Shown one piece after another: positions 1,651 through 48,534 of a stretch of DNA of 63,958 bases. The notes beneath the pieces are model-generated. The model was not told the origin of the DNA and made no database searches. It saw nothing but the letters and a program-made list of their open reading frames with translations. A program made the translations under genes and the position numbers. Source of the stretch: Candidatus Omnitrophota bacterium (lineage in GTDB: Bacteria > Omnitrophota > Gorgyraeia > Aquiviventales > Aquiviventaceae); assembly GCA_016209275.1 (NCBI GenBank), contig JACQWM010000015.1, positions 1 to 63,958 of the forward strand. The letters are read 5' to 3'. Each line of letters opens with the position of its first letter. The first letter of the stretch is position 1.

Positions 1651-3315
1651 TTACATCCGGGTGGGAGCCGAAATGCCCAGCAGGCCTAGGCCGTTGGCCA
1701 GCACCTGTTGGGCGGCGCGGATTAACCCTAAGCGCGCGGCCGTCAATTCCTGGTCCTCGCTGATGACGCGGTGCTTCGTATAAAACACATGGAACGTCTC
1801 GGCGAGCTTGCGCAGGTAGATGGTCAGGCCGTGCGGCTCAAGCGAGGCGGCGCAGAGCCGCAGCACCATCGGGTATTGGACAATCGCGCGCAGCAGCAGC
1901 CGCTCCTCGGTTTCGGCGAGCCGTTCGAGCGCCTTAGGGGAGGGCTCGCGCGGCGCGCCATTAGCTTTCGCCAGGATGCTGCAGATGCGAGCGTGGGCGT
2001 ATTGCACGTAATAGACCGGGTTCTCTTGAGATTGCGCGGCGGCGAGCTCCAGATCGAAATCAAGGTGGCTCTCCATCGTGCGCATCACGAAGAAGAATCG
2101 CGTCGCATCCACGCCGACTTCATCCAGCACCTCTTCAAACGTCACGAATTCGCCGGCGCGCTTGGACATCGGCACCGGCGCGCCATGGCGCGACAAGGTG
2201 ACCAGCTGCACGATCTTGACCGTCAGGCGCTCGGCCGGTAATCCTAAGGCTGCCACCGCCGCTTTGACGCGCGCGATGTACCCGTGATGGTCCGGCCCCC
2301 ACAAGTTGAGGATCTGATCGTACTTCCGCTCAAACTTGAACTGATGGTAGGCGATATCCGGGGCGAGATACGTCAGCTCCCCGTTGCGCTTCTTGATCAC
2401 GCGGTCCTTGTCATCGCCATAGGCCGTCGAGCGGAACCACATCGCCTCCTCAGCGTCATACACGGCCCCGGCCTCGCGCAAGGCCTTGAGGGCGGCGTCG
2501 ATCCGGCCTGAGGTGCGCACCCATTGCTGGCTGGTCCACACATCGAACACCAGGTTGAATCGCGCCAGCACGCGGCGGATCTCGGCAAGCTGCTCGTCCA
2601 TCCCGAACGCCATAAAGGCCTCGAGCGGCTGATCCGCCCATCGATCGCCGTGCTGCTGGATCAGGCGCGCCGCGCTCTCGGTGACGTACGAGCCATGGTA
2701 GCCGTCCTCGGGAAACGGCTCGTCGCGTCCCAGAGCCTGGAGGTATCGCGCCCGCAGCGAACGTCCGAGCATTTCAATCTGGCGGCCTTCATCATTCAGA
2801 TAGTACTCGGTGGTCACGCGGAAGCCCTGCGAGCGCAGCAGCCGAGCGAGCACATCCCCGACGCCGGCTTGGCGGCCGTGGGCCAGGCTCAGCGGGCCGG
2901 TCGGATTCGCGCTGACGAACTCGATGTTGATCAACGGCGATGGGTCGCGGCGGCAATGGCCAAAGCGGCCGCCCTCTTCAAGCGCTTGCGTGAGCGTCTC
3001 AATCAGGGCGCTGGGGGAGAGAAAGACGTTGAGAAACCCTGCGTTAGCTTCCGCGCGGTCAATCGCCTCCCCGGCGTTTGTCTGCCGGCTGCACGCCACA
3101 AAGGCCTCGGCGAGCGCTTCGGCAAGCCGGGGCGGCGGCTGGCGCAGCGAGGCGGCGAGCTTAAACGCCGCCGCGCTTGAGACATCGCCGAAGCTGGGGT
3201 CTTTGGGCATGTCCCAGCGCAGCAGCGCCTCAGGCACGGCCGCTTCGGGGGAGAGCCGGCTGATGGCGCTGCGTAAGATCTGGCTGAGTTGGGTCTCAAG
3301 CGTCTGTACAACCAT
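1651..3315 (-). CDS. argS: Arginine--tRNA ligase
   Basis: 554-aa ORF. Class I aaRS signatures SANPTGPLSLAHGR (HIGH-like) and PMSKRAGEF (KMSKS-like); anticodon-binding C-terminus ending ..APTRM. Confidence 0.92.
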   Translation of the reverse strand: MVVQTLETQLSQILRSAISRLSPEAAVPEALLRWDMPKDPSFGDVSSAAAFKLAASLRQPPPRLAEALAEAFVACSRQTNAGEAIDRAEANAGFLNVFLSPSALIETLTQALEEGGRFGHCRRDPSPLINIEFVSANPTGPLSLAHGRQAGVGDVLARLLRSQGFRVTTEYYLNDEGRQIEMLGRSLRARYLQALGRDEPFPEDGYHGSYVTESAARLIQQHGDRWADQPLEAFMAFGMDEQLAEIRRVLARFNLVFDVWTSQQWVRTSGRIDAALKALREAGAVYDAEEAMWFRSTAYGDDKDRVIKKRNGELTYLAPDIAYHQFKFERKYDQILNLWGPDHHGYIARVKAAVAALGLPAERLTVKIVQLVTLSRHGAPVPMSKRAGEFVTFEEVLDEVGVDATRFFFVMRTMESHLDFDLELAAAQSQENPVYYVQYAHARICSILAKANGAPREPSPKALERLAETEERLLLRAIVQYPMVLRLCAASLEPHGLTIYLRKLAETFHVFYTKHRVISEDQELTAARLGLIRAAQQVLANGLGLLGISAPTRM

Positions 3316-3940: not shown

Positions 3941-4948
3941 TCAAGCGCGCCGCGTGGGGGGCCGCTCTTCATGGATTTCTCCGACAATTTCTTCCAGCAG
4001 GTCCTCGATCGTCACCAGGCCCACGGTCGCTTTGCTTGCATTCTGCACGATGGCGATCTGCGCCTTTTGCTGCTGGAACTCGCTCAGGAGCTCGGCGATG
4101 CGCTTGGTCTCGGGCACGAAGGCCACCGGACGGATCAAATCGGCCAGCACGAACAAGCCCCCATGCCGCACCATGGTCAGCAAATCCCGCGCGTAAATCA
4201 CGCCGACGACGTGATCCAGGCTGCCCTGGTAGACCGGAATCCGCGCATGCCCTTGCTCAATGAGGACGTCCAGCACCGCCTCCGGCTTGGCGCGCAAATC
4301 CACGCCGGCGATCTGCGCGCGCGGCACCATCGCATCTCTGACAATCGAATCGCTGAACTCGAAAATCCGATGCAGCAGCCTCAGCTCCTGCTCCGCCAGC
4401 ACGCCGGCCTCCCGCCCCATCTGGATCATCACTTTAATCTCTTCTTCGGTGACGAGCGGCGCGCGGCGCTTCACCGGCACCCGCAGCAGGTGCAGCAACC
4501 CGCGGCCGAGCCACGTCCAAAAGGTGGAAAGCGGGTACAACACCGCGGTCAGCAGGCGAAGCGGTCTGGCCATGATCAGCGCCACCGTCTCGGGGTGTGT
4601 CACCGCGAAGAGCTTCGGCGTGATTTCCCCGATCAGCAGCAGCAGTGCCGCCAGCACGATCGTGGCGATGGCTAGCCCGGGATCAGAGCCGAAGATCGAC
4701 ACGATCCACCAGGAGCCGATGGCGGTAAAGACCACATTCACCGTCGTGTTGGCCACCAGCAAGGTGCTGACGAGATGATCGAGTTGTTTGAGCAGGTCAA
4801 AGGTGATCTGCGCGCTGCGATTGCCCTGCTCCACCAGGTGGCGGAGGCGGACTTTGTTGATCGAGAGCATCGCCGCCTCAGAGGCTGAAATGAGGGCGGA
4901 GGCCAGCAGGAGAAGGCCAAGCACGATACTCATCGGCACATGGATCAT
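3941..4948 (-). CDS. CNNM/HlyC-CorC family transporter (DUF21 membrane domain + CBS pair)
   Basis: 335 aa. N-terminal TM region ..ASALISASEAAMLSINKVRLRHL.., then a CBS-type region ..VRDAMVPRAQI..VYQGSLDHVVGVIYARDLL... Confidence 0.8.
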   Translation of the reverse strand: MIHVPMSIVLGLLLLASALISASEAAMLSINKVRLRHLVEQGNRSAQITFDLLKQLDHLVSTLLVANTTVNVVFTAIGSWWIVSIFGSDPGLAIATIVLAALLLLIGEITPKLFAVTHPETVALIMARPLRLLTAVLYPLSTFWTWLGRGLLHLLRVPVKRRAPLVTEEEIKVMIQMGREAGVLAEQELRLLHRIFEFSDSIVRDAMVPRAQIAGVDLRAKPEAVLDVLIEQGHARIPVYQGSLDHVVGVIYARDLLTMVRHGGLFVLADLIRPVAFVPETKRIAELLSEFQQQKAQIAIVQNASKATVGLVTIEDLLEEIVGEIHEERPPTRRA

Positions 4949-9305: not shown

Positions 9306-10829
9306 CTATTGATTGCCGACGTTCACCTTGATCTGCTCAAAGTGCAGGCTCGGGTCCGAAAGTACGAGGATCTTGGCTCGGCTCGTGTTCTCAAGCGCGG
9401 TCAGGCTGGGCCGATCCTCCTGCAGCAAGCGGACAGCCACCTGCGGATGGACCAGCAGCTCGACCGTCTTGTGGTGCCCTGCTTTCAGCACCCGCTTCGC
9501 CTCCCGGATCGCCTCGATGGCCATCGTGACCGCCGACTTGATGCTGCCCTTGCCGTTGCAGTAGGGGCAGGACTGATGGCTGACGGTTTCGAAGGAGCGC
9601 CGCATCCGCTGGCGGGTCAGCTCGGCCACGCAAATCTCGGAGAACGACACCAGGTTCGTCTTGGCCCGGTCGCGCTCCAGCGCATCCTCCAGCGTCTTCA
9701 CCAGCTCCCGGCGGTGGGCGGCGATGTCCAAATCGATGAAATCGATCACCACGATGCCGCCGATATCGCGCAGCCTCAGTTGCCGGGCGACCTCGATCGC
9801 CGCCTCTTTATCCACATGGAACGCCGTCTCCTCCAGGCCTCGCCGGCCGGTGAACTTCGCGGTGTTGACGTCGATCGCGACCATGCTCTCGGTCGGCTCA
9901 ATCACGATCGATCCGCCGGAGGGCAATTGCACCCGCTTATCAAACAGCGAGGCGATTTGATCCTCCAGCCCCTCTTTCTCAAACAGCGGCTGATCGCCCT
10001 GATACCAATCGACCCGCACCCGGACCCCGGGAATCAGCACTTGCAGGAAATGGCGCAGCTCGTGGAACGGCTTTTTCGAGTCGACGACAATGCGGTGGGT
10101 ATCCTCGGTGAAGCTATCCCGGATGACGCGCTGGGCCAGCTCGTATTCCTGGTACACGCAGGCCGGGGCCTTGGCCCTCGCCGAGCGGCGCTTCGTCTCT
10201 TGGTAGATCCGCGAGAGGTACCGCACGTCCCGCGCAAACTCTTTTTCCCCTTTGCCGATGCCGGCGGTGCGGATGATCAGCCCGGCCTCCTGGGAGAACC
10301 GCAGTTTCGAGAGGATCTCGCGCAAGCGGCCGCGCTCCTTGCCGTCCTCGATCCGCTTGGACACCCCGAGCCTTGAGTCGTTGCACATCAGCACCATGTA
10401 GCGGCCGGGCAAGCTGATGTGGGTGGTGAGGCGCGCTCCCTTGGTGCCGAAGGGCTCTTTCACGTCTTGGACCAGGATTTCCTGCCCGACCTTGGCGTCG
10501 TCCTCGATTCTGGAGCGCCGTTGGCCGCCGTGGTGCTGCGGCCGCGCTTTCTGGGCCGGAGCCTCGCCTTCAAGGATCGCGTCTTCTTCCGGCTTGGGCT
10601 CGACGATATCCGCGACGTACAAAAATCCATTTTTCCCCAGCCCGATGTCGACGAACGCCGCCCCGATGCCGGGCACCACCGACGTGATCCGGCCCTTATA
10701 GATGCTGTTCACCATGCGGGTATCCGAGGCGCGCTCGACGTAATACTCCTCGAGCCGTTTCTCCTCGGTGACCGCCACGCGGGTTTCCTGGGCGTCCGCG
10801 CTGATGAAGATTTCTTTGAGCTTAGGCAT
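9306..10829 (-). CDS. rng: Ribonuclease G/E family endoribonuclease
   Basis: 507 aa. S1-like N-terminus (..IYKGRITSVVPGIGAAFVDIGL..), catalytic core ..VVIDFIDL.., Zn-link CPYCNGKG. Confidence 0.88.
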   Translation of the reverse strand: MPKLKEIFISADAQETRVAVTEEKRLEEYYVERASDTRMVNSIYKGRITSVVPGIGAAFVDIGLGKNGFLYVADIVEPKPEEDAILEGEAPAQKARPQHHGGQRRSRIEDDAKVGQEILVQDVKEPFGTKGARLTTHISLPGRYMVLMCNDSRLGVSKRIEDGKERGRLREILSKLRFSQEAGLIIRTAGIGKGEKEFARDVRYLSRIYQETKRRSARAKAPACVYQEYELAQRVIRDSFTEDTHRIVVDSKKPFHELRHFLQVLIPGVRVRVDWYQGDQPLFEKEGLEDQIASLFDKRVQLPSGGSIVIEPTESMVAIDVNTAKFTGRRGLEETAFHVDKEAAIEVARQLRLRDIGGIVVIDFIDLDIAAHRRELVKTLEDALERDRAKTNLVSFSEICVAELTRQRMRRSFETVSHQSCPYCNGKGSIKSAVTMAIEAIREAKRVLKAGHHKTVELLVHPQVAVRLLQEDRPSLTALENTSRAKILVLSDPSLHFEQIKVNVGNQ

Positions 10830-10840
10830 GGGACGTTTTA

Positions 10841-11602
10841 TTATATCAGAAGAACCGCCAGCACGCTGATCGCCGCCGTCTCAGAGCGCAAGACCGCGCG
10901 GCCCAACGAAACCGCCACAGCCCCTGCGGCCGAGGCGTGGCGGACTTCCTGCGGCGTAAAATCGCCTTCCGGCCCGATGCAAACGAGCATTGACGATAAA
11001 GCCAGAGTCGGCTGGGGGCTAGGAGCTGGGGGCTGGGGGTTCAGGGAGGATAGCACCTCGCGCAAGGGGATGGTGCCAGGACCGAGGGTGGGCAACAGCA
11101 CGCGGGAAAATTCATGAAAGCGCTGTGTAAGTTCGGCGAAGCGCTGCGGCGACTCGATGATCGGCAGCACCGCCTGGCCGCATTGCTGGGCGGCCTCCCG
11201 GCTGATCGCTTGCCACCGGCCAACCTTGCGCTGCCCCTGTTCCTTGGTCAAGCGGATGATCGTCCGCTCTGTCACCAGCGGGATGATCTGTGCTGCCCCA
11301 AGCTCGGTCGCCTTCTGGATGGCCCAATCAAACCGATCCGCAGGCAGCAGGGCCATGGCCAGCGCGATCCGACGCTGCTGTGCCGGGACTTGCCGATGCC
11401 TACGCACCGCCACGCGCACCTGGCCTGACGCGCACTGGTCGATCACGCCGTCATAAATCGCGCCAGAGCCGTCGAAACATTCAAGGCCGTCCCCGGCTCG
11501 CAGCCGCAGCACGCGCACCAGATGATGCACGTCCTTCGGGTTAGCGATGGTGATGGTCGAGCCCTTGATGTCTTCAGGCGGGACAAAGACGCGGTGCATC
11601 AT
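10841..11602 (-). CDS. rsmE: 16S rRNA (uracil1498-N3)-methyltransferase RsmE
   Basis: MMHRVFVPPEDI..HHLVRVLRLRAGD.., C-terminal ..CIGPEGDFTPQE... Carries an in-frame heptamer array (see 11011-11045). Confidence 0.88.
   Translation of the reverse strand: MMHRVFVPPEDIKGSTITIANPKDVHHLVRVLRLRAGDGLECFDGSGAIYDGVIDQCASGQVRVAVRRHRQVPAQQRRIALAMALLPADRFDWAIQKATELGAAQIIPLVTERTIIRLTKEQGQRKVGRWQAISREAAQQCGQAVLPIIESPQRFAELTQRFHEFSRVLLPTLGPGTIPLREVLSSLNPQPPAPSPQPTLALSSMLVCIGPEGDFTPQEVRHASAAGAVAVSLGRAVLRSETAAISVLAVLLI
11011..11045. repeat. Tandem heptamers GCTGGGG/GCTAGGA/GCTGGGG/GCTGGGG/GTTCAGG inside the rsmE coding sequence
   Basis: Read directly. The minus strand is (CCCCAGC)n and encodes ..NPQPPAPSPQP.. 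just before the conserved GPEG motif. Confidence 0.85.
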
Positions 11603-11681: not shown

Positions 11682-11684
11682 CCG

Positions 11685-11757
11685 TGGAGCTGGCGGGAGT
11701 TGAACCCGCGACCTCTTGGGTGCGATCCAAGCGCTCTCCCAACTGAGCTACAGCCCC
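11685..11757 (-). tRNA. tRNA-Ala (anticodon CGC)
   Basis: Reverse complement GGGGCTGTAGCTCAGTTGGGAGAGCGCTTGGATCGCACCCAAGAGGTCGCGGGTTCAACTCCCGCCAGCTCCA. G3:U70 identity pair, anticodon loop AUCGCAC, T-loop GGTTCAA. CCA is not encoded. Confidence 0.93.
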
Positions 11758-11770
11758 TCGTCGAGCGTGT

Positions 11771-11798
11771 GACGTTTAACGTGAAACGTGTAACGTGG
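11771..11798. repeat. Four phased heptamers GACGTTT/AACGTGA/AACGTGT/AACGTGG upstream of tRNA-Ala
   Basis: Read directly. The same GAAACGT-type 7-mer alphabet occurs in the asd insert (47930-47998) and in hairpin 2 of the pilus leader. Confidence 0.7.
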
Positions 11799-11816
11799 AA
11801 GGGTAGACGTCGCGGC

Positions 11817-14381: not shown

Positions 14382-16085
14382 TTATCTGTCGAGTAACACC
14401 ACGTTGCCAAGCTCCTCAAGGCTGGTCAGGCCGGCGCGCACTTTCTTCAGCCCCTCCTGCCACAGGGTGCTGAAGCCGTTCTTCAGTGCCGCATCCTTCA
14501 GCATCGGAGCCGCAGCCCCCCGCGCGATCAAATCCCGGATCTCCCGGGTGAGGACGAGCACTTCATACACGCCCAGGCGGCCTTGATAGCCGGTATTAGC
14601 GCACTCCTCGCACCCTTTCGGGCGGTAGAGCAGCTCTTCGGTGATACCGTACTGCGCGCGAAGCTCCGGCAGCGGCTCATACGCCTCTTTGCACCGCTCG
14701 CACAGCTGCCGCAGCAGCCGCTGGGCGATGACCAGGCTTAACGTGGAGGCGAGCAAAAATGGGGCGAGCCCGATGTCGATCAGCCGGGTAATGGCGCTTG
14801 GCGCGTCATTCGTGTGCAGTGTTGAGAGGACCAGATGTCCTGTGAGCGCCGAGCGCAGGCAAATCTCGGCGGTTTCCTGGTCGCGGATTTCTCCCACCAT
14901 GATGATGTCCGGATCCTGCCGCATGAACGCCCGCAGCCCGCTCGCAAAGGTTAACCCGATGGCCGGCTTGATCTGCACCTGATTCACACCCTCCAGCCGG
15001 TACTCCACCGGGTCCTCGATCGTGATGATGTTCTTGGTCGGCGAGCTGATTTCGATGAGCGACGCATACAGGGTGGTCGACTTGCCTGAGCCGGTCGGCC
15101 CGGTGAGCAGGATCAGCCCGTACGGATCGCGGATCGTTTTGCGGAAGACCTCCAGGCTCTGCGGCGAAAAACCGAGCCGCCCGAGGTCTAAGAGCGACTC
15201 TGGCTTATCCAAAATCCGGATGACGAGCTTCTCGCCGTAGATCGAGGGGATGGTCGAGACGCGGAAGTCCACCTGCCGGCCCTCCATCATCATCATAAAG
15301 CCGCCGTCCTGGGGCAGCCGCTTTTCGGCGATGTCCAGCTTGCAGAGGATTTTGATGCGCGAGACGATCGGCGGGTGGAATTGCTTGGCCGGCGGCGAAA
15401 TTTCCTGCAGCACGCCGTCGATGCGGTAGCGCAAGCTCACGCGGTCCTTGAACGGCTCGATGTGGATGTCGCTGGCGCGCTCTTTGATGGCTTGGCGGAT
15501 GATCAGATCCACCAAGCGGACCACCGGGGCTTCCTCGGCGGCTTGCTTGATCCGATCCAAATCCAGCACCTCGCCGCCTTCGAGCGTGTCGGCCTCGGCA
15601 CCCTCGTAAGACCGGCCGATGGCCTCGGAGAGCATGGAGCTATCGGTGTAAAATTTGTTGATCGCCTCTTCAAGATCCGATTTCGTGGTCACCACCGGGT
15701 TAATCTCGCAGCGCGTCATCCGCGTGAGGTTATCCATCGTGATCAAATCCAGCGGATTGACGCACGCGACCGTGACCGAGCTGAGCGTCCTGGAAAGCGG
15801 GAGTACGAGGTACTGGCGGGCGAAGCTGGCCGGTACGAGCTGCGCTAACTCGTCCTCTTTCCGCGGTGTCAGCAGGCCGGAGGCGCTGGTGGCAAACGGA
15901 ATGCCGAGCTGCTTGCTCAGGGTGAGGGCCAGATCCAGCTCGCTGATTAAGCCCAGCTCAATGAGCACTTCGCCCAGTCGCTTCGTCGTGCCTTTTTGCA
16001 CCTCCAGCGCCTTCGAGAGCTGCTGCTCGGTGATCAGGCCGTTTTGGATCAAGATTTCGCCGACCTTTTCTGTCGTTTTGAGCAT
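14382..16085 (-). CDS. pilB: Type IV pilus assembly ATPase PilB / GspE family
   Basis: MLKTTEKVGEILIQNGLITEQQL.. (T2SSE N-domain); Walker A GPTGSGKSTTLY; C-terminal CxxC..C Zn site. Start moved to ATG 16085; the GTG at 16106 lies inside the palindrome. Confidence 0.9.
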   Translation of the reverse strand: MLKTTEKVGEILIQNGLITEQQLSKALEVQKGTTKRLGEVLIELGLISELDLALTLSKQLGIPFATSASGLLTPRKEDELAQLVPASFARQYLVLPLSRTLSSVTVACVNPLDLITMDNLTRMTRCEINPVVTTKSDLEEAINKFYTDSSMLSEAIGRSYEGAEADTLEGGEVLDLDRIKQAAEEAPVVRLVDLIIRQAIKERASDIHIEPFKDRVSLRYRIDGVLQEISPPAKQFHPPIVSRIKILCKLDIAEKRLPQDGGFMMMMEGRQVDFRVSTIPSIYGEKLVIRILDKPESLLDLGRLGFSPQSLEVFRKTIRDPYGLILLTGPTGSGKSTTLYASLIEISSPTKNIITIEDPVEYRLEGVNQVQIKPAIGLTFASGLRAFMRQDPDIIMVGEIRDQETAEICLRSALTGHLVLSTLHTNDAPSAITRLIDIGLAPFLLASTLSLVIAQRLLRQLCERCKEAYEPLPELRAQYGITEELLYRPKGCEECANTGYQGRLGVYEVLVLTREIRDLIARGAAAPMLKDAALKNGFSTLWQEGLKKVRAGLTSLEELGNVVLLDR

Positions 16086-16100
16086 GATGTCTCTACTTCC

Positions 16101-16146
16101 GCACACTAGAGGTAGCGCAGGTTTAAACCTGCGCTACCTTGTGTGC
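16101..16146. repeat. Palindrome between pilQ and pilB (perfect 28-nt core 16111-16138)
   Basis: GGTAGCGCAGGTTTAAACCTGCGCTACC, with outer arms GCACAC/GTGTGC. GTAGCGC also recurs just outside the right arm. Confidence 0.9.
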
Positions 16147-16147
16147 G

Positions 16148-17854
16148 CTACTTTTTACTCTGTTCTTGCTCGAGGGCGTTGAGGGTTTGCTCAATCGCCT
16201 GCTGCTGGCTGCCCCCACCTGGCTCCTGCTCCCGCAGCATCGGCGTCACGCCGCTCGCCACCGCTTTTGGCAGCCGATCATGGAGAATGCGTGGTGTCAC
16301 AAACACGATCAGCTCGCTATTGGTGCGCGTGGTTTCCTTGTTCTTAAACGCTTCGCCGACGATCGGGATCCCGGAGAGCACCGGGACTTTCCTCACCGTC
16401 TGCTCATCGCTGTTGTCGATCAGCCCGCCAAGGACCAAGGTTTCGCCTGCCCGGATCCGCACCATGGCCCTGGCACTGCGCGTCTTCGGATCGAGCACGC
16501 TATTGCCGAGCCCACTCGGCGGTGTGAGGTTCGAGGTCACGGTCTTCGTCACCGAGGGCTCCACCAGCATGGTAATACCCCCCCCTTCATTGACTTGAGG
16601 GGTGACCACTAAAATGACACCGGTGATCGTCCGTTCAGGCGTTGCCGTCACCGAGGCGGTCCCGCCACCAGTGCTCGTGGTTTGCGTCTGGAACCCGATG
16701 ACCTGATTGGCGCTGAGCCGGATCACCGCGGCTTCATTGTCCAACGTCAGCACCTTCGGCCGGGCCAAAATTTTTGTGTCGGTGTCTGTCTCCAGCGCCT
16801 GCAACGTGGCGACGGCGCTGCTGGCGTCAAGCGTGCTCAGGCCGAAATGCGTTGGGGTTGTTGACGGCTGGATCTTCTGTCCGAACACATTGAAGGGAAA
16901 CCGCGTGGTGCGCGATCCCGGGGTGAAGGTGGCGAATGTCCCTTCGGAGCCAGTACCCCATTCAAGACCGAGGTCTTTGACTTTGCCCAGGGTGGTTTCA
17001 AGCACTTCGGCCTCGATCAGGACTTGGGCGGTTCGGATATCCAGCGCTTTGAGCACCGCTTCAATCCGCGGAAAGTTCTCCGGGATATCAGTCACGATCA
17101 AGCTGTTGGTCCGCTCATCCACGACGACCGTCCCGTCTTCGGTCAATAACTTCGCCACCACTTTATCCACACCGATCTCCTTCGCCCCTCCGCTCGTACC
17201 TGTTCCCCCGGCCGTGGAGCCGCCAGCGCCGCTCGAACCGCTTGTGCCGCCGGACCCTGAGGAACCTCCCCCGCCGCTTCCAATCGAGGCGTTGATCGCG
17301 GCGTTGGTCGCTTGCGCCGCCTCAAACGGGGTTTGCGAACCGAGGGCCTCCGCCGCGCGGGCCAGCCGCGAGGTGGACACTCGCGCGTATTTCAGCCGAT
17401 ACACGCGGGTGATCGTCTGCACCAGGCTCTCGGTGGATTTCTTGCCCGGCTCCTTCGGCCTAACCACGTAGATTTGGCTGCCCACCGGCCGCTCATACCG
17501 CAAATCCGCCGCCTCAAGAATCCGATCCAGCGCATCGAGCACGGTGACATCTTCCAGATACAGCGTGATCGGCTTATCACCCACCTTCTCGCTGGCGATG
17601 ACGTTGAGCCCGGTCTGCTGGGAGAAGGTCTTCAGCACGTTCTTCAGCTCGGCGTCTTTGAAATCCATCGAGATGCGCGTGGGCTCTGCCTCCGCGGCTG
17701 CATCAGGCGCGCCGCGAGAGGGGGCCTGCAGGGCCGGCTCCGGAACGGATGCGGCTGAGCCTGAGCCGCGATCGCCCTCCAAGGCTTGCGCCGACGCTCC
17801 GCACAGCGACAGGAGCGCCACCCACAACACCACGTGCCCGCATCTCGCGTTCAT
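16148..17854 (-). CDS. pilQ: Secretin PilQ / GspD family
   Basis: 568 aa. Signal peptide; N-domain ..ISMDFKDAELKNVLKTFSQQTGLNVI..; Gly/Ser-rich linker; secretin C-domain ..LVLGGLIDNSDEQTVRKVPVLSGIPIVGEAFK.. Confidence 0.9.
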   Translation of the reverse strand: MNARCGHVVLWVALLSLCGASAQALEGDRGSGSAASVPEPALQAPSRGAPDAAAEAEPTRISMDFKDAELKNVLKTFSQQTGLNVIASEKVGDKPITLYLEDVTVLDALDRILEAADLRYERPVGSQIYVVRPKEPGKKSTESLVQTITRVYRLKYARVSTSRLARAAEALGSQTPFEAAQATNAAINASIGSGGGGSSGSGGTSGSSGAGGSTAGGTGTSGGAKEIGVDKVVAKLLTEDGTVVVDERTNSLIVTDIPENFPRIEAVLKALDIRTAQVLIEAEVLETTLGKVKDLGLEWGTGSEGTFATFTPGSRTTRFPFNVFGQKIQPSTTPTHFGLSTLDASSAVATLQALETDTDTKILARPKVLTLDNEAAVIRLSANQVIGFQTQTTSTGGGTASVTATPERTITGVILVVTPQVNEGGGITMLVEPSVTKTVTSNLTPPSGLGNSVLDPKTRSARAMVRIRAGETLVLGGLIDNSDEQTVRKVPVLSGIPIVGEAFKNKETTRTNSELIVFVTPRILHDRLPKAVASGVTPMLREQEPGGGSQQQAIEQTLNALEQEQSKK

Positions 17855-18823: not shown

Positions 18824-20413
18824 TTATAACCTTCGCTCGGCTTTCGCGTTGAGCTCAAACGTCCGATACGTGTACTCTTGCTGATTGCGGCGCTCCACCT
18901 GGTCGTGGATTTTCTCGACACCGGCCGACCCGAACGCCGCCTGGCTTTTCACGCGGGATTCAAAATTCCGGATCACTTCATCCTGGCGGCCTGGATCATC
19001 CAAGTAGCAGGCACCGGAGACCCGCAGCGTGCTCTGCCCTCTGCCGGTCGGATCCGGCCGATCCTCGAATGCCACGCCGGTCAGCCACACCCCATCCGGC
19101 AGCAACCGGGCCAGCACATCAAGCTTGGCGGCGACCCCGCTTCGCTGATCGACGAGCGCGGCCAGCACCCTGGCTTGCTCGCTGGCCTGCTGCATGAGCG
19201 GGGTCAACGCTTGCTGCTCCAACGCCGCCAGCCCAAAGCCGACATCGGGCCGCGAGCGTCGCTTCTGCGCGAGCGCGCGCTCTCCCTCCGCGTCTTGCTG
19301 CGCGAAAAACGCCCACGCGCTGATGAGCGCAATCACCGCGATGCTGACCGCGGCGAAGCTCTCCGTCGTTAGAAATTGCTCGAGAAGGTGTTTCAGCGCG
19401 GCTCGTCCTTGAGCCGCCCGAGCGCGCTCGGCCGGTTTGATCGTGCTGCGCTTCAAAAAGTCCAGGGCGGCGGCTGACCGATCGCCGCGGTGCCGCTGAA
19501 GCAAGCCTAAGGTCGCGGCAAACATCAAGGGCAATTCCTGGCCCGCCACCAGGGGCTTGAGCAAACCGCTTCCAAGCTCGACGACGCATCGCAGCTGATC
19601 CGACAGCCAGGCCTGCCACGCGCCGATTAAGGCGTCATCCCCGAAGAGCAGCACGGTGGGGATGATGGCCGAGGGATTCTCCCGGGTGAAGAAATCCATC
19701 GAGACGCGCAATTCGCTGAGGAGCCGCTGGGCGCGCGGGTCAACGCTCTCAAGCCCCGCCCCCCCCTGCGGCGATGCGGACAGGCTCGCGTGAGCATCCT
19801 CCGGCAACGCGATGTCCCTCGTCAGGTACGGCACCCCGCCGCGCGCGATCACCAAATGCGCCTGGCCAGGCTCCATATCCACCAAGCAGATATATTCGTT
19901 CGGATTGGAGGTCCGCTCTTTCTTTCCGATGGCCAGGCGGGCCAAGCTGAGGCTGCCGGGCTCAATGCTCGTCGGCTCCACACCGGCTTCGGTGAGCGCT
20001 GACAGAAATTGCTGGAACGCCGCGCGCTGGATGGCGGTAAACACCACGTGCAATTTCTTTTTGTCTTTGGATTCGAGCACATGATAATCCCACACCAGGT
20101 TTTCCGGCTTAAACGGCACGTAGCGGCGGGCCTCAAACTGCACCGCCCCCTCCCACTCCGCTTTCGGCAGCATCGGAAGGGTGAAGAAGCGCACCAAGAC
20201 GTCCTTCGTCGGGATGGCCACGGCCAGCCGCGCGTCCGCCAGATGCGCCTCGGCCACCGCCTGCCGGATGGCGGCGATCAGCTCTTGCTTCTCCGGCCCG
20301 CCGAGCGGCACGCGCACGCGCGCCGAAACTTTTAAGCCCTGCATGGCCAGTAGTTCGACCTCATGCGCCCGAATCACCAACCCTGCCGACGGTCCCGCGC
20401 TAAAGAAGCCCAT
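18824..20413 (-). CDS. Fused PilM (actin-like ATPase) - PilN protein
   Basis: 529 aa. The N-terminal ~330 aa are PilM-like (..AIPTKDVLVRFFTLPMLPKAEWEGAVQFEARRYVPF..). A TM segment (..AVSIAVIALISAWAFF..) and a PilN-like C-terminus (..LPDGVWLTGVAFE..) follow. Confidence 0.85.
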   Translation of the reverse strand: MGFFSAGPSAGLVIRAHEVELLAMQGLKVSARVRVPLGGPEKQELIAAIRQAVAEAHLADARLAVAIPTKDVLVRFFTLPMLPKAEWEGAVQFEARRYVPFKPENLVWDYHVLESKDKKKLHVVFTAIQRAAFQQFLSALTEAGVEPTSIEPGSLSLARLAIGKKERTSNPNEYICLVDMEPGQAHLVIARGGVPYLTRDIALPEDAHASLSASPQGGAGLESVDPRAQRLLSELRVSMDFFTRENPSAIIPTVLLFGDDALIGAWQAWLSDQLRCVVELGSGLLKPLVAGQELPLMFAATLGLLQRHRGDRSAAALDFLKRSTIKPAERARAAQGRAALKHLLEQFLTTESFAAVSIAVIALISAWAFFAQQDAEGERALAQKRRSRPDVGFGLAALEQQALTPLMQQASEQARVLAALVDQRSGVAAKLDVLARLLPDGVWLTGVAFEDRPDPTGRGQSTLRVSGACYLDDPGRQDEVIRNFESRVKSQAAFGSAGVEKIHDQVERRNQQEYTYRTFELNAKAERRL

Positions 20414-20425
20414 CTCTTAACCCAT

Positions 20426-20476
20426 CCTCATCTGCGTCATCTGTGTCATCATCTTTTCATAATCTCTGTAATCATC
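20426..20476. repeat. Tandem 9-mers (CCTCATCTG/CGTCATCTG/TGTCATCAT/CTTTTCATA) plus an 11-mer shared with the pilB-pilC gap
   Basis: Read directly in the pilMN 5' region. CTGTAATCATC at 20466-20476 equals 14365-14375. Confidence 0.75.
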
Positions 20477-22930: not shown

Positions 22931-23170
22931 CAATCTCTGCCTCTGGTCGGCCTCGGACTTCGTCCTCGGCACGCTCATCGGCGACCACGCACGCTGTGCG
23001 TGGTGCCCGCCTCGAGCGGCAGCTCGGCCATCTCAAGAGACCCGTAGCTTTGCCCCTCCTACGCTCAAACGTTTTCACGTTTGAGCTTCGGAGGGCCCTG
23101 CGTAGCTCAATCGTGCAAACGATTGAGCGAAGCAGGGGTCCCCAGATTACTCTGGGTTTGCCTTTATCGA
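22931..23170 (-). ncRNA. Candidate structured RNA of unknown class (sRNA or cis-acting leader of the pilus operon)
   Basis: No credible ORF. The region lies between a promoter-like element and the terminator. Hairpins: CCCAGA-GUAA-UCUGGG (23156-23141), two abutting paralogous two-tier hairpins (23137-23096 and 23095-23054), and CCACGCAC-AGC-GUGCGUGG (23003-22985). Confidence 0.5.
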
Positions 23171-28726: not shown

Positions 28727-28761
28727 CGCAATCGTTCAACACGCAACAACGATTATCGCAG

Positions 28762-28838
28762 ATAGCACATAGCACACAGCACATAGCAACAGCGTCATCT
28801 CTCTGCTATTGGCTATCTGCTATGTGCTATGCACTATC
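28762..28838. repeat. Heptamer-array hairpin: (ATAGCAC/ACAGCAC)x4 - loop - (TGCTATG-type)x5
   Basis: ATAGCAC ATAGCAC ACAGCAC ATAGCAA .. TGCTATT GGCTATC TGCTATG TGCTATG CACTATC, upstream of uvrA. Confidence 0.9.
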
Positions 28839-32842: not shown

Positions 32843-32853
32843 TTCTCAATAAG

Positions 32854-32943
32854 GCGACCCATGACCCATGACGCATGACGCATGACTAAAACCAAGCACG
32901 ACAGTGTGGGTCGTGTGTCATGGGTCATGTGTCTTGTGTCACT
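32854..32943. repeat. Heptamer-array hairpin: (CATGACN)x4 - loop - (NGTCATG-type)x5, copy 1
   Basis: CATGACC CATGACG CATGACG CATGACT .. GGTCGTG TGTCATG GGTCATG TGTCTTG TGTCACT. The right arm encodes the dapB C-terminus. Confidence 0.9.
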
Positions 32944-42393: not shown

Positions 42394-42485
42394 ACCGACC
42401 CATGACCCACGACTCATGACACATGACCAAAGAACCGTTAGCCGTTTGAGGTCGTGGGTCGTGCGTCATGTGTCGTGTGTCGCCG
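42394..42485. repeat. Heptamer-array hairpin: (NCATGAC)x5 - loop - (GTCRTGN)x5, copy 2
   Basis: GACCGAC CCATGAC CCACGAC TCATGAC ACATGAC .. GTCGTGG GTCGTGC GTCATGT GTCGTGT GTCGCCG. Aligns with 32854-32943. Confidence 0.9.
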
Positions 42486-46678: not shown

Positions 46679-47458
46679 TCAATCATCATAGCCGACGCAA
46701 ACGAGCGTGAGCCCCTTCGCCGGCGCCGTCGCGCCGGCCAGCGACCGCTGGCCCTCCCGCAGCATCCGCCGCACGATGCCACGCGGCAATCGCCCGCGGC
46801 CGACATCCATCACGGTGCCGGCGAGGCTTCGAACCATCGTATGAAGAAACCCATTGCCCTCCACCTCAAGATGAAGCTCCTTGCCGCGCCGGATAAGCGC
46901 GATGCCATAAATGGTCCGGCGCGTCGACCGAAGCGTCTTTCCTTCCTCGCGGGCAAACGCGCGAAAATCATGCGCGCCCTTAGCCGCTGCGGCTTCCCGG
47001 CGCATGGCTGCGAGATTCAGCGGCGCATGCACGCGATGCACATACGGCCGAATAAAGGGCGGGGGCGCATCCCCAAGAAAGATCCGGTAACGATACCGCT
47101 TGCGCTTCGCAGCATACTGCGCATGGAACCCCCTTAAGGCCTCCTCAATGCTGGTCACGACGATGTCAGAGGGCAAGAGGTGGTTGGCGGCTTTGCGCAA
47201 CGTCTTGGTCTCGATCATCGAGCGGGTTCTGACGTGAGCGACTTGAGCTTCGGCATGCACGCCGGCATCCGTCCTGCCGCTGCCGATGACCCGCACGTCT
47301 TCGTGGAGGATGGTCTTGAGAACCTTCTGGAGCGTTCCCTGGATGGTTGGCGTCTGCGTGTTGCGTGTCTGAATTTGCCAACCCGCATATCGGGTGCCGT
47401 CGTAGGCGATGGTGAGTTTGAGGGTGCGAGTTCCGGTGCCAGGTCCTCTCTTCGTCAT
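46679..47458 (-). CDS. truA: tRNA pseudouridine(38-40) synthase TruA
   Basis: ..LKLTIAYDGTRYAGWQIQ..GSGRTDAGVHA.. Confidence 0.92.
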   Translation of the reverse strand: MTKRGPGTGTRTLKLTIAYDGTRYAGWQIQTRNTQTPTIQGTLQKVLKTILHEDVRVIGSGRTDAGVHAEAQVAHVRTRSMIETKTLRKAANHLLPSDIVVTSIEEALRGFHAQYAAKRKRYRYRIFLGDAPPPFIRPYVHRVHAPLNLAAMRREAAAAKGAHDFRAFAREEGKTLRSTRRTIYGIALIRRGKELHLEVEGNGFLHTMVRSLAGTVMDVGRGRLPRGIVRRMLREGQRSLAGATAPAKGLTLVCVGYDD

Positions 47459-48534
47459 GTCTTCACAAAATTGGACCTGGCACCGCCGATGAGGAGTTCA
47501 GCGATTTGGATGGCGTTGGTGGCCGCCCCCTTGCGCAGGTTATCGCCGCTCACCCACAAGGCGAGGCCCCGTTTCACCGACGCATCCCTGCGCAGCCGGC
47601 CGACAAGGACGTTGTCTTGCCCACCCGCATCAATGGGCAGCGGATAGGCGCCGCGCGCAGGATCATCGACCAGCGTCACGCCTGGCGCCTTGCGCAAGAG
47701 CCTGGCCGCCTGCTCGGCCGAGAGCGGCCGTTTCGTTTCGATCCAAACCGCCTCGGAGTGCGCTCGGAACACCGGCACCCGAACGCATGTGGACGTCACG
47801 GCAAGCTGCGGCTCCCCAAGAATCTTCCGAGTCTCGTTGACCATCTTCATCTCTTCTTTCGTGGAGCGGTTCTTCAGGAAGAGGTCGACCTGGGGGATCA
47901 CGTTGAACGCAATCTGCTTCGGTAAGACGGTTTCATGTTTCAGGTTCCAGGTTTCAAGTTGAGGTTTAACCTGAAACGTGGAACGTGAAACCTGAAACTG
48001 CCGCAAGGCTCGCTTCGTTTCGTCATAAAGTTGAAACATGGCTTTCGCGCCGGCCCCTGAGACGGACTGATAGGTGGACACGATGATCCGCGTGATCCGC
48101 GCCGCTCGATGCAACGGGGCCAGCGGGACGAGCATAATGATGGTCGAGCAGTTAGGATTGGCGATCAAGCCCTGATGGCCTTTCAGCGCGCGAGGATTGA
48201 CCTCCGGAATAACCAGCGGGACCTCCGGCGCCATGCGGAACGCGCTGGAGTTATCCACGACAATCGCCCCGCGTTTGACGGCTTCAGGAGCAAACTCCAG
48301 GCTGCGGGCAGCCCCGGCGCTAAAGAGCGCCACATCGATTCCGGCAAACGATCGCGGTGTCAGCTCCTCCACGCGATACGTGGAGCCGTTGAACGGCACT
48401 CGACGGCCTTCTGACCGCGCTGAGGCCAGCACTTTCAGCCCCACCACCGGAAAGCGCCGCTGCTGCAAGACTCGCAGCATCTCGGTGCCCACAGCACCTG
48501 TGGCTCCGACAACTGCAACGTTGATTTTTTTCAT
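47455..48534 (-). CDS. asd: Aspartate-semialdehyde dehydrogenase with a repeat-encoded loop
   Basis: MKKINVAVVGATGAVG..; ..ANPNCSTI..; ..STKEEMKMVNETRKILG... Confidence 0.93.
   Translation of the reverse strand: MKKINVAVVGATGAVGTEMLRVLQQRRFPVVGLKVLASARSEGRRVPFNGSTYRVEELTPRSFAGIDVALFSAGAARSLEFAPEAVKRGAIVVDNSSAFRMAPEVPLVIPEVNPRALKGHQGLIANPNCSTIIMLVPLAPLHRAARITRIIVSTYQSVSGAGAKAMFQLYDETKRALRQFQVSRSTFQVKPQLETWNLKHETVLPKQIAFNVIPQVDLFLKNRSTKEEMKMVNETRKILGEPQLAVTSTCVRVPVFRAHSEAVWIETKRPLSAEQAARLLRKAPGVTLVDDPARGAYPLPIDAGGQDNVLVGRLRRDASVKRGLALWVSGDNLRKGAATNAIQIAELLIGGARSNFVKT
47930..47998. repeat. 69-nt heptamer-array palindrome in frame inside asd
   Basis: GTTTCAT GTTTCAG GTTCCAG GTTTCAA GTTGAG GTTTAAC | CTGAAAC GTGGAAC GTGAAAC CTGAAAC. 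Encodes QFQVSRSTFQVKPQLETWNLKHE. Confidence 0.9.

Follow-up and report, generated by a model that had tools for sequence, protein, structure and literature searches.

How does an essential gene come to carry a long palindrome of tandem heptamers within its reading frame, and at what level is such a segment maintained? The question is raised by a 63,958-nucleotide (nt) stretch of DNA from a Candidatus Omnitrophota bacterium (the window, termed WIN in the orthologue comparisons; coordinates refer to its plus strand unless stated), in which asd, the minus-strand gene for aspartate-semialdehyde dehydrogenase (47455–48534), contains a 69-nt palindrome at 47930–47998. Our results favour, with a probability of about 0.55, a reading in which the asd segment is vertically inherited, in frame and translated, belongs to a class of heptamer-array palindromes found throughout the lineage, and is tolerated by the protein as a loop. 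Members of this class in the clade normally occupy the spacers between operon genes. The asd orthologues show concerted turnover of the heptamers with frequent compensation between the arms, avoidance of stop codons and kinship with the intercistronic elements.

On the plus strand the palindrome reads GTTTCAT GTTTCAG GTTCCAG GTTTCAA GTTGAG GTTTAAC CTGAAAC GTGGAAC GTGAAAC CTGAAAC, letter for letter as listed in the original prediction made from the window. The repeat finder resolves two arms of 31 nt (47930–47960 and 47968–47998) that are 87% complementary and separated by a 7-nt spacer. Each arm consists of 4–5 tandem heptamers of the form GTTTCAN or NTGAAAC, and Tandem Repeats Finder returns a period of 7 with 4.6 and 4.4 copies, equal to head-to-tail 7-nt units. 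Viewed on the mRNA, the 5′ arm (47968–47998, minus strand; period 7, 4.4 copies) is (GTTTCAN)x4 followed by GTT and encodes (Q)FQVSRSTFQV, while the 3′ arm (47930–47960, minus strand) is AAC followed by (NTGAAAC)x4 and encodes LETWNLKHE(T). The centre between them (47961–47967, minus strand) is AAACCTC within GTT AAA CCT CAA (V-K-P-Q), which is conserved in the clade as GTGAAaCCnAAA (V-x-P-K). Folding of the sense RNA gives −39.4 kcal/mol (z −6.1) and of the DNA −26.5 kcal/mol (z −6.3), with a stem of stacked 6-bp helices interrupted by a 1x1 mismatch at every seventh base. In both cases none of 200 shuffles equalled the fold, which rules out chance or base composition as the source of the palindrome. 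Other identities considered for the element were an attC-like core site, which the GTTRRRY consensus does not fit, a −1 frameshift slippery site, for which no XXXYYYZ motif is present, and translational bypass, against which the open reading frame (ORF) and stop avoidance favour translation.

The host gene is intact. The ORF encodes 359 amino acids (aa) and matches Asd structures in the PDB (2qz9 best, E 2.6e-95, with 2gyy and 8juo; E 1e-91 to 1e-95) and the Pfam domains PF01118 and PF02774 (Semialdhyde_dh and Semialdhyde_dhC). Catalytic Cys129 (NPNCST) and His259 (in AHSE) are invariant across 86 aligned sequences, and the gene shows no sign of being a pseudogene. The palindrome does lie in frame as first described, with the qualification that the 23 codons for QFQVSRSTFQVKPQLETWNLKHE correspond to 48000–47932; the palindrome limits are 2 nt off and hence not codon-aligned. 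The insertion site is a length-variable linker that leads from the SGAG helix to the QIAFN strand, and linker comparison confirms the position originally assigned to it. From SGAG to IAFN this linker measures 53 aa in the window, 43 aa in Bacillus-type enzymes and 36 aa in 43 of 68 non-clade Asd sequences. It therefore exceeds the commonest non-clade length by 17 residues and the Bacillus type by 10, the latter being the excess estimated at the outset. Alignment with Vibrio cholerae Asd2 opens a 17-residue gap opposite residues ~188–204, and compared with Streptococcus pneumoniae Asd the window region is longer by ~6 residues.

An AlphaFold2 (AF2) model built from an 86-sequence alignment that includes non-clade Asd places the insert within an otherwise confident fold, with a mean predicted local distance difference test score (pLDDT) of 88, a predicted template modelling score (pTM) of 0.85 and a template modelling score (TM) of 0.83–0.90 to Asd crystal structures. 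An alignment of 29 close homologues alone left residues 155–257 at pLDDT <50. In the 86-sequence model the drop in confidence is confined to the surroundings of the insert: averaged over 10-residue blocks, pLDDT is 73–75 for residues 161–180, 72 for 181–190, 52 for 191–200, 48 for 201–210 and 63 for 211–220, with values <50 at residues 197–203 and 208–210. Together with the alignment gap and the position, which we take to be where the Asd family has its variable 'helical subdomain', the low confidence suggests that the insert is a surface loop. The protein would merely tolerate this excursion around residues 180–210 as a flexible loop, and the element probably plays no role in Asd catalysis.

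The original prediction was that a mobile or expandable hairpin element had inserted here, in parallel with the Rickettsia palindromic elements (RPEs). In its strongest form this means a recent, in-frame insertion of an RPE-like element, or of a MITE (miniature inverted-repeat transposable element), into the genome of the window. The palindromic build, the preserved frame and the surface linker all suit such an event, and a related half-array lies at 11770–11800; the sharing of heptamers within genomes and the GTTTCR hairpins of many phyla, both described below, leave room for copying between loci. However, recent insertion is largely refuted by the sampling of orthologues. The 120 closest Asd homologues (71–81% identity) derive from groundwater and sediment metagenomes, and the named ones are 'Candidatus Omnitrophica/Omnitrophota', with some labelled Planctomycetales. 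All 120 have a long linker (46–66 aa; 53 aa in 64 homologues, and 46 aa and 60 aa in one each), and in all 120 the segment stands at the same codon as in the window and in the same register. The orthologous sequences differ, no second full copy of the element exists within the 64-kb window beyond the three-unit half-array, no target-site duplication or direct repeat is visible in the flanks, and 69 nt compares with ~150 bp for RPEs (PMC10969869). We therefore consider a recent insertion highly improbable. The 'expandable' half of the proposed origin fits better, with concerted turnover within the arms at a fixed position and a mostly fixed length.

DNA was obtained for 27 clade loci through DNA-pattern scans and 12 exact-protein look-ups, and the order leuB–asd–truA is conserved among them. 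The arms were compared in 15 orthologues with an ungapped 53-aa linker. Heptamer register is identical in all 15, with arm 1 as four to five copies of [C/G]AGTnnn, the conserved centre, and arm 2 as four copies of CTCGnnA. The variable part of the heptamer is genome-specific (GTTTCA, GTTTCG, GTGTCG, GTGGCG, GAATTCG and others) and the copies of an arm mostly change together. Arm 2, for example, runs through CTCGAAA, CTCGCAA, CTCGCCA, CTCGCAC and CTCGCCC from genome to genome, while period-7 identity within arms stays at 0.6–0.96. The imprint on the protein is a 7-residue period: linker peptides are identical between positions i and i+7 at a frequency of 0.21, against 0.05–0.07 for other periods and 0.09 for the rest of the protein, and the period is detected in 84 of the 120 homologues. 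Orthologous linkers read, for instance, FRVSSSEFRV / LETRNPKLGT, CRVASGQWRV / LVTRHSSLVT and FGVRSSEFGV / LSPRTSHLAP, and this is the most variable part of the Asd peptide.

Turnover of the heptamers has for the most part preserved pairing between the arms. Palindromy, which the original prediction singled out for comparison among orthologues, is present in 12 of the 15 genomes with 23–29 of 33 positions paired, and is lost or decayed in others. Paired cells amount to 71.9% in register and fall to 27–38% when the partner is slid by 1–3 columns. Two-sided changes occur in 25 of the 33 pairs, and the observed covariation score was reached by none of 500 shuffles.

The reading frame leaves its own mark on the arrays. 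When the arms are idealised to their own consensus heptamer, the frame remains open throughout in 13 of 15 genomes. In the remaining two, the window and L268, a single copy would give an in-frame stop, and it is exactly this copy that departs from the consensus. In the window the copy contains the TGG (Trp) codon at 47947–47949 (minus strand), the sole arm heptamer where the consensus TGA falls in frame and the point at which an idealised array stops; the GTTCCA variant of the opposite arm supplies the C that pairs with its G. The intact ORF and this avoidance of stop codons indicate that the segment is translated.

Divergence within the segment points to the nucleotides rather than the peptide as the conserved object. 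Comparison of WIN, L391, L392 and L393 gives a divergence of 46–53%, which is saturation, at third codon positions in the rest of asd, and of just 17–29% in the 72-nt segment. Inside the segment the differences fall evenly on codon positions 1, 2 and 3 (for example 4/5/5, 5/4/9 and 5/4/4 of 24 each). Such slow and codon-even divergence is a signature of constraint on nucleotides rather than on the peptide. The pair L001 and L002 (third positions 23%, segment 2.8%) was rejected as strong evidence, since under full concerted evolution it reduces to ~7 independent sites (P ~0.16).

The same data bear on the idea that the protein itself selects for a loop of 7-residue repeats, such as an FxV / FxV beta-hairpin, with the DNA periodicity incidental. 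In the AF2 model the two FQV motifs (residues 180–182 and 187–189) do come together as a small beta-hairpin, and the homologues share a conserved linker length, a V-x-P-K-L centre and a terminal LP. Selection on the peptide, however, cannot yield a 7-nt periodicity that is read in all three frames, nor complementarity of the arms, and it sits poorly with a linker that varies more than any other part of the protein and with differences that fall equally on all codon positions. There is little likelihood that it accounts for the segment.

The kinship of the asd segment with otherwise non-coding elements of the same genome, part of the original prediction, is borne out by sibling arrays elsewhere in the window. 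A tandem-periodicity scan finds 10 runs of period 7, none of periods 4–6 or 8–12, and none in shuffled sequence. Eight of the 10 pair into four hairpins of one architecture, the asd element among them, which fall into three heptamer classes without a shared consensus. The three intergenic hairpins nearly fill the spacers between co-directional minus-strand genes. A GCACATA / TATGTGC hairpin (28754–28832) lies upstream of uvrA, between it and a nadX-like aspartate dehydrogenase gene. A GACCCAT / ATGGGTC hairpin (32853–32941) occupies the spacer that separates dapB from an aminotransferase gene and also covers the final 17 nt of dapB, and a further hairpin of the GACCCAT class (42397–42482) fills the argJ–argB spacer. 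The latter two share their heptamer class and have different 21-nt loops.

Spacer-filling arrays of this kind extend through the clade. Its DNA (203 kb) contains 43 period-7 runs against 0–3 for other periods, a density ~8 times that of 1.72 Mb of non-clade loci. In nine loci with called genes, intergenic DNA makes up 8% of the sequence but contains or borders on 22 of the 33 runs, which typically extend from stop to start codon; seven of the 11 'coding' runs are the asd element itself. In L242 the spacers leuB–asd, argC–argJ, argJ–argB and argF–argG contain arrays, and intercistronic arrays were located in this locus at 4214–4342, 9910–9993, 15802–15885, 17127–17168 and 20384–20466, as well as in L244 (4313–4418 and 11071–11234), L245 (16749–16843) and L248 (13537–13606). 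As with the asd element, the heptamer of a given spacer differs between genomes; that of argJ–argB is GACCCAT in the window, GACAGAG in L245 and GGCAGTA in L242. Separate sites have a heptamer class in common in 5 of 71 pairs within genomes and in 5 of 964 pairs between genomes. Arrays in related genomes also recur in spacers of the same operons, including asd–truA.

Several observations weigh against the vertically inherited, nucleotide-constrained element that we favour. The sample is small, at 15–18 orthologous DNAs, and the finding of divergence below the synonymous rate depends on a few pairs that are not independent. In L241 and L242 the arms are near-perfect arrays that are mutually non-complementary, and L245, L247 and L248 combine an intact asd with decay of periodicity as well as of pairing, so that neither property is indispensable. 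On the sense strand, G·U cells (24) are not in excess of A·C cells (29), and selection on a sense-strand RNA fold is thus not specifically supported. The AT-rich and distant Asd genes of L200 (27% GC) and L106 (31% GC) have linkers of 52–53 aa that lack both heptamer periodicity and a hairpin, and hence the added length could be older than the element. These linkers show that long inserts from other sources can be accommodated at the site; their peptides are unrelated to that of the window, and they do not present a clean case of one peptide persisting in distant lineages without palindromy. Finally, a slip by one 7-nt unit breaks the frame of an essential gene, and homogenisation at constant length needs an extra mechanism.

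Where the arms of L241 and L242 no longer pair with each other, arm 1 consists of 6-nt palindromes plus one base (GAATTC-G and TGTACA-G), which are self-complementary, and arm 2 is a perfect and unrelated array (CTCGCCC and CTCGCAC). In L246 (P0069, 10477–10672) ~36 nt of additional sequence are present in the loop, between GGCTMRG and GCCCAYA arrays, and P0069, P0079, P0080 and P0116 have a further insertion of 11–13 residues in the loop or arm of the asd element. The asd site thus keeps accepting new sequence.

Pairing and constraint together raise the possibility that the element has a function in cis as an mRNA hairpin, which could pause the ribosome after the N-terminal NAD-binding domain or act in stability or processing of the leuB–asd–truA transcript, with the peptide as a by-product. 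The very stable sense stem, the covariation across the clade and the slow, codon-even divergence are all consistent with such a role. L259 keeps 27 of 33 pairs, six of them as G·U. The siblings lie exactly between cistrons, where stem-loops like those of repetitive extragenic palindromic (REP) elements are known to act on mRNA, and in-frame copies elsewhere likewise lie in inter-domain linkers. Against this, the parity of G·U and A·C cells and the lack of a consistent strand preference (of the four window hairpins, sense folds better at one, whereas antisense folds as well or better at three) mean that the sense RNA is not identifiable as the selected object. Complementarity has been lost or has decayed in five loci with an intact asd, a hairpin alone leaves the tandem periodicity of the arms unexplained, no RNA run was found to contain the locus, and no Rfam family matches: at gathering score, Rfam 15 finds tRNA-Ala alone in the window and leaves the asd element unmatched. 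A dedicated mRNA hairpin is accordingly an explanation that we hold to be possible yet rather doubtful.

The same losses of pairing fit a different explanation, in which the segment is the neutral relic of a single insertion or expansion whose length the loop now needs, the repeats being kept by mutational homogenisation without selection on the nucleic acid. Perfect arrays without pairing in L241 and L242, harmless decay in several lineages and the absence of a G·U bias are all expected of such a relic. Suitable mutational processes exist, for the excess of heptamer simple sequence repeats (SSRs) in many bacteria is attributed to polymerase slippage in the accounts that PMC4679880 and PMC4692102 give with reference to Mrazek 2007, and template switching that corrects quasipalindromes is established as a mutational process (PMC7202029). 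Neutral concerted evolution, however, predicts divergence at the neutral rate, and the segment falls 2–3 times below the saturated third positions. It has also been retained over a synonymous-saturated clade despite the deletion bias of bacteria and although long palindromes are unstable, and slippage by a single unit is lethal in frame. A purely neutral relic seems unlikely to us.

The favoured history is that of a vertically inherited, translated palindrome. A heptamer array may have arisen or landed once in the length-tolerant Asd linker of an ancestor of the high-GC clade whose genomes NCBI labels 'Ca. Omnitrophota'. Heptamers within an arm would then be homogenised by replication slippage or by conversion among the repeats, and complementarity between arms could owe its persistence to template switching inside the palindrome, to selection acting on a nucleic-acid hairpin, or to the two together. 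The reading frame filters the outcome: only heptamers free of stop codons survive, and only lengths that are multiples of three. Homogenisation could be reconciled with the frame of an essential gene if units slipped three at a time or were converted at unchanged length. Function, if any, would reside at the nucleic-acid level and be common to the intercistronic siblings, in the form of a stable stem-loop of the DNA or of the polycistronic transcript. By analogy, the position of the siblings suggests a REP-like action on polycistronic mRNA.

Among known systems, the asd element stands closest to heptamer SSRs, the features in common being tandem 7-nt units, an excess of period 7, a mostly intergenic class and convergent arrays that form a stem-loop. 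Convergent pairs of heptamer SSRs (GGGAATC; Rehm et al. 2015) number 70–75 per genome in Xanthomonas and are stem-loop-capable (PMC4692102). Heptanucleotide repeats are further represented by the cyanobacterial short tandemly repeated repetitive (STRR) sequences and by TAACTGA of Beggiatoaceae, of which MacGregor 2015 noted a few inside ORFs (PMC4679880). Related genomes preserve the type of an SSR and vary its length. Unlike the Xanthomonas repeats, the arrays described here comprise many heptamers per genome with no single dominant G-rich unit and no G-quadruplex potential, and unlike heptamer SSRs generally the asd copy is a complete palindrome, in frame within a conserved essential enzyme.

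RPEs are intragenic MITEs of ~150 bp, palindromic and translated in frame within housekeeping genes (PMC10969869). The parallel drawn in the original prediction is fair as a likeness of behaviour, given that in both cases palindromic DNA is translated within a housekeeping enzyme whose ORF stays intact and whose fold is apparently compatible. It does not extend to membership of the RPEs or MITEs, which form many-copy sequence families with a conserved family peptide and vary in presence and absence between species. The asd element differs from these in size, in copy number within the window, in lacking a target-site duplication and a family peptide, and in being carried by every sampled orthologue with a variable heptamer and a variable peptide.

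The sibling elements resemble REP sequences in being imperfect palindromes packed between operon genes, with heptamer classes that recur within a genome. REP sequences and bacterial interspersed mosaic elements (BIMEs) are extragenic by definition, share a genome-wide consensus, are linked to REP-associated tyrosine transposases (RAYTs) and have no tandem heptamer substructure, whereas the asd copy is intragenic and the window hairpins lack a shared consensus. REP/BIME elements, including REP doublets forming hairpins (REPINs), are presented in PMC3116915 as intercistronic palindromes of enterobacteria and pseudomonads. A fourth comparison is offered by the tandem repeats of Borgs. The asd element has a 7-nt unit (with a 7-aa peptide period from three units), inverted arrays and an ancient origin within its clade. 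The repeat units of Borg ORFs are, by contrast, multiples of three, direct only and recent. As outlined in PMC9879509, Borg repeats are fast-evolving, occur inside ORFs, are kept in frame and add disordered peptide, which is where the likeness lies. In the literature searched we found no description of a clade-wide orthologous heptamer palindrome with concerted turnover and compensatory change.

Heptamer palindromes like that of asd occur well beyond the clade. A scan of a cross-phylum collection with four GTTTCR units, and hence with one heptamer alone, recovered at least 120 species in many phyla against a chance expectation of ~0.1, and 19 of the loci among the matches listed have an inverted partner within 80 nt. 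Near-identical hairpins of the form (GTTTCAR)n-loop-(YTGAAAC)n are found in distant phyla, cultured organisms included, as in Flavobacterium panici (L336, 3223–3285), a member of the Pyrinomonadaceae (L295, 2270–2343) and Desulfonema magnum CP061800 (L310, 7656–7754).

Some of these arrays also lie within genes. In a Desulfobacterales MurD (L321, JAOZRQ010000481.1, ORF 1847–3281, reverse strand) an in-frame GTTTCR palindrome encodes (KFETGNW)x6 followed by KFQVSSFKFQ inside the Mur_ligase_M domain, with Pfam domains on both sides. MurD thus adds, from a different phylum, one more essential enzyme that carries an insert of this kind. A Verrucomicrobiales locus (L309) has an in-frame array between PSCyt1 and PSCyt2 domains, as checked against Pfam, and an array in L348 lies within a protein with a hit to the DHDPS family of Pfam. 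From their translations, judged by eye, further arrays (L316, L342 and L382) appear to be in frame in TopA of a Saccharimonadales member, in PurL of a Flavobacteriaceae member and in the linker of a hybrid histidine kinase before its receiver domain.

Taken at their widest, these occurrences raise the speculative and, in our estimate, improbable prospect that heptamer-array palindromes are distinct and widespread functional nucleic-acid modules, actively renewed and copied between loci and selected even inside asd and murD. Such modules could range over groundwater 'Omnitrophota', Flavobacterium, Acidobacteriota, Desulfobacterales, Verrucomicrobiota and genomes of the candidate phyla radiation (CPR). 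If so, the translated loop would be imposed on the protein, perhaps with a programmed ribosome pause at a domain boundary, and the asd copy would be a natural experiment in which selection on nucleic acid overrides protein economy for the lifetime of a clade.

The vertically inherited asd element that we favour has consequences of its own. Heptamer repeats have been known as over-represented since 2007, with their function unexplained. In asd the flanks anchor the alignment, and thus turnover of the heptamers, compensatory change and avoidance of stops can be read directly. The asd series provides evidence that nucleotides, not peptide, are the conserved object, and it links in-frame copies to the elements that fill intercistronic spacers. 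Whether the hairpins are by-products or functional is now testable, with cultured carriers that include species of Flavobacterium as well as Desulfonema magnum. Annotators who meet such a segment should not take it for an assembly error, a frameshift or a pseudogene.

Contigs from four groundwater DNA runs show no indel at the asd element, but they break there. Logan contigs of runs X3 and X4 end or start at the palindrome (47903–48090). De Bruijn assemblies, which break at heptamer-array elements, may under-represent them in metagenome-assembled genomes (MAGs). Elsewhere within asd, at 47700–47767, one short contig from each of the four runs (X1–X4) skips 66 nt (22 codons); these contigs are 90–95% alike to the window and therefore probably derive from the asd of a related organism with a shorter segment at this point.

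Two of the 10 period-7 runs of the window remain without an inverted partner. The half-array at 11770–11800 adjoins tRNA-Ala (11684–11757, minus strand; half-array upstream of it) and has three units of an asd-like heptamer (AACGTGA / GTTTCAC type; GTTTAAC GTGAAAC GTGTAAC). A non-coding occurrence of the same 7-mer had been proposed for 11771–11798, and what lies there is this array of a related heptamer, only half of a palindrome. A hairpin in a pilus leader, claimed to contain the same 7-mer, was not located in the window, including by a prepilin motif search. The other run is a single CCCCAGC array (11010–11039) in frame within the minus-strand gene rsmE (10841–11602), where it encodes NPQPPAPSPQP directly before the IGPEG motif of an RsmE-like 16S rRNA methyltransferase (Pfam PF04452).

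The window also contains palindromes that are not built from heptamers. At 16101–16148 a perfect-type palindrome of 24+24 nt is followed by a T-run and resembles a bidirectional intrinsic terminator, and at 23053–23138 a pair of adjacent hairpins spans 86 nt.

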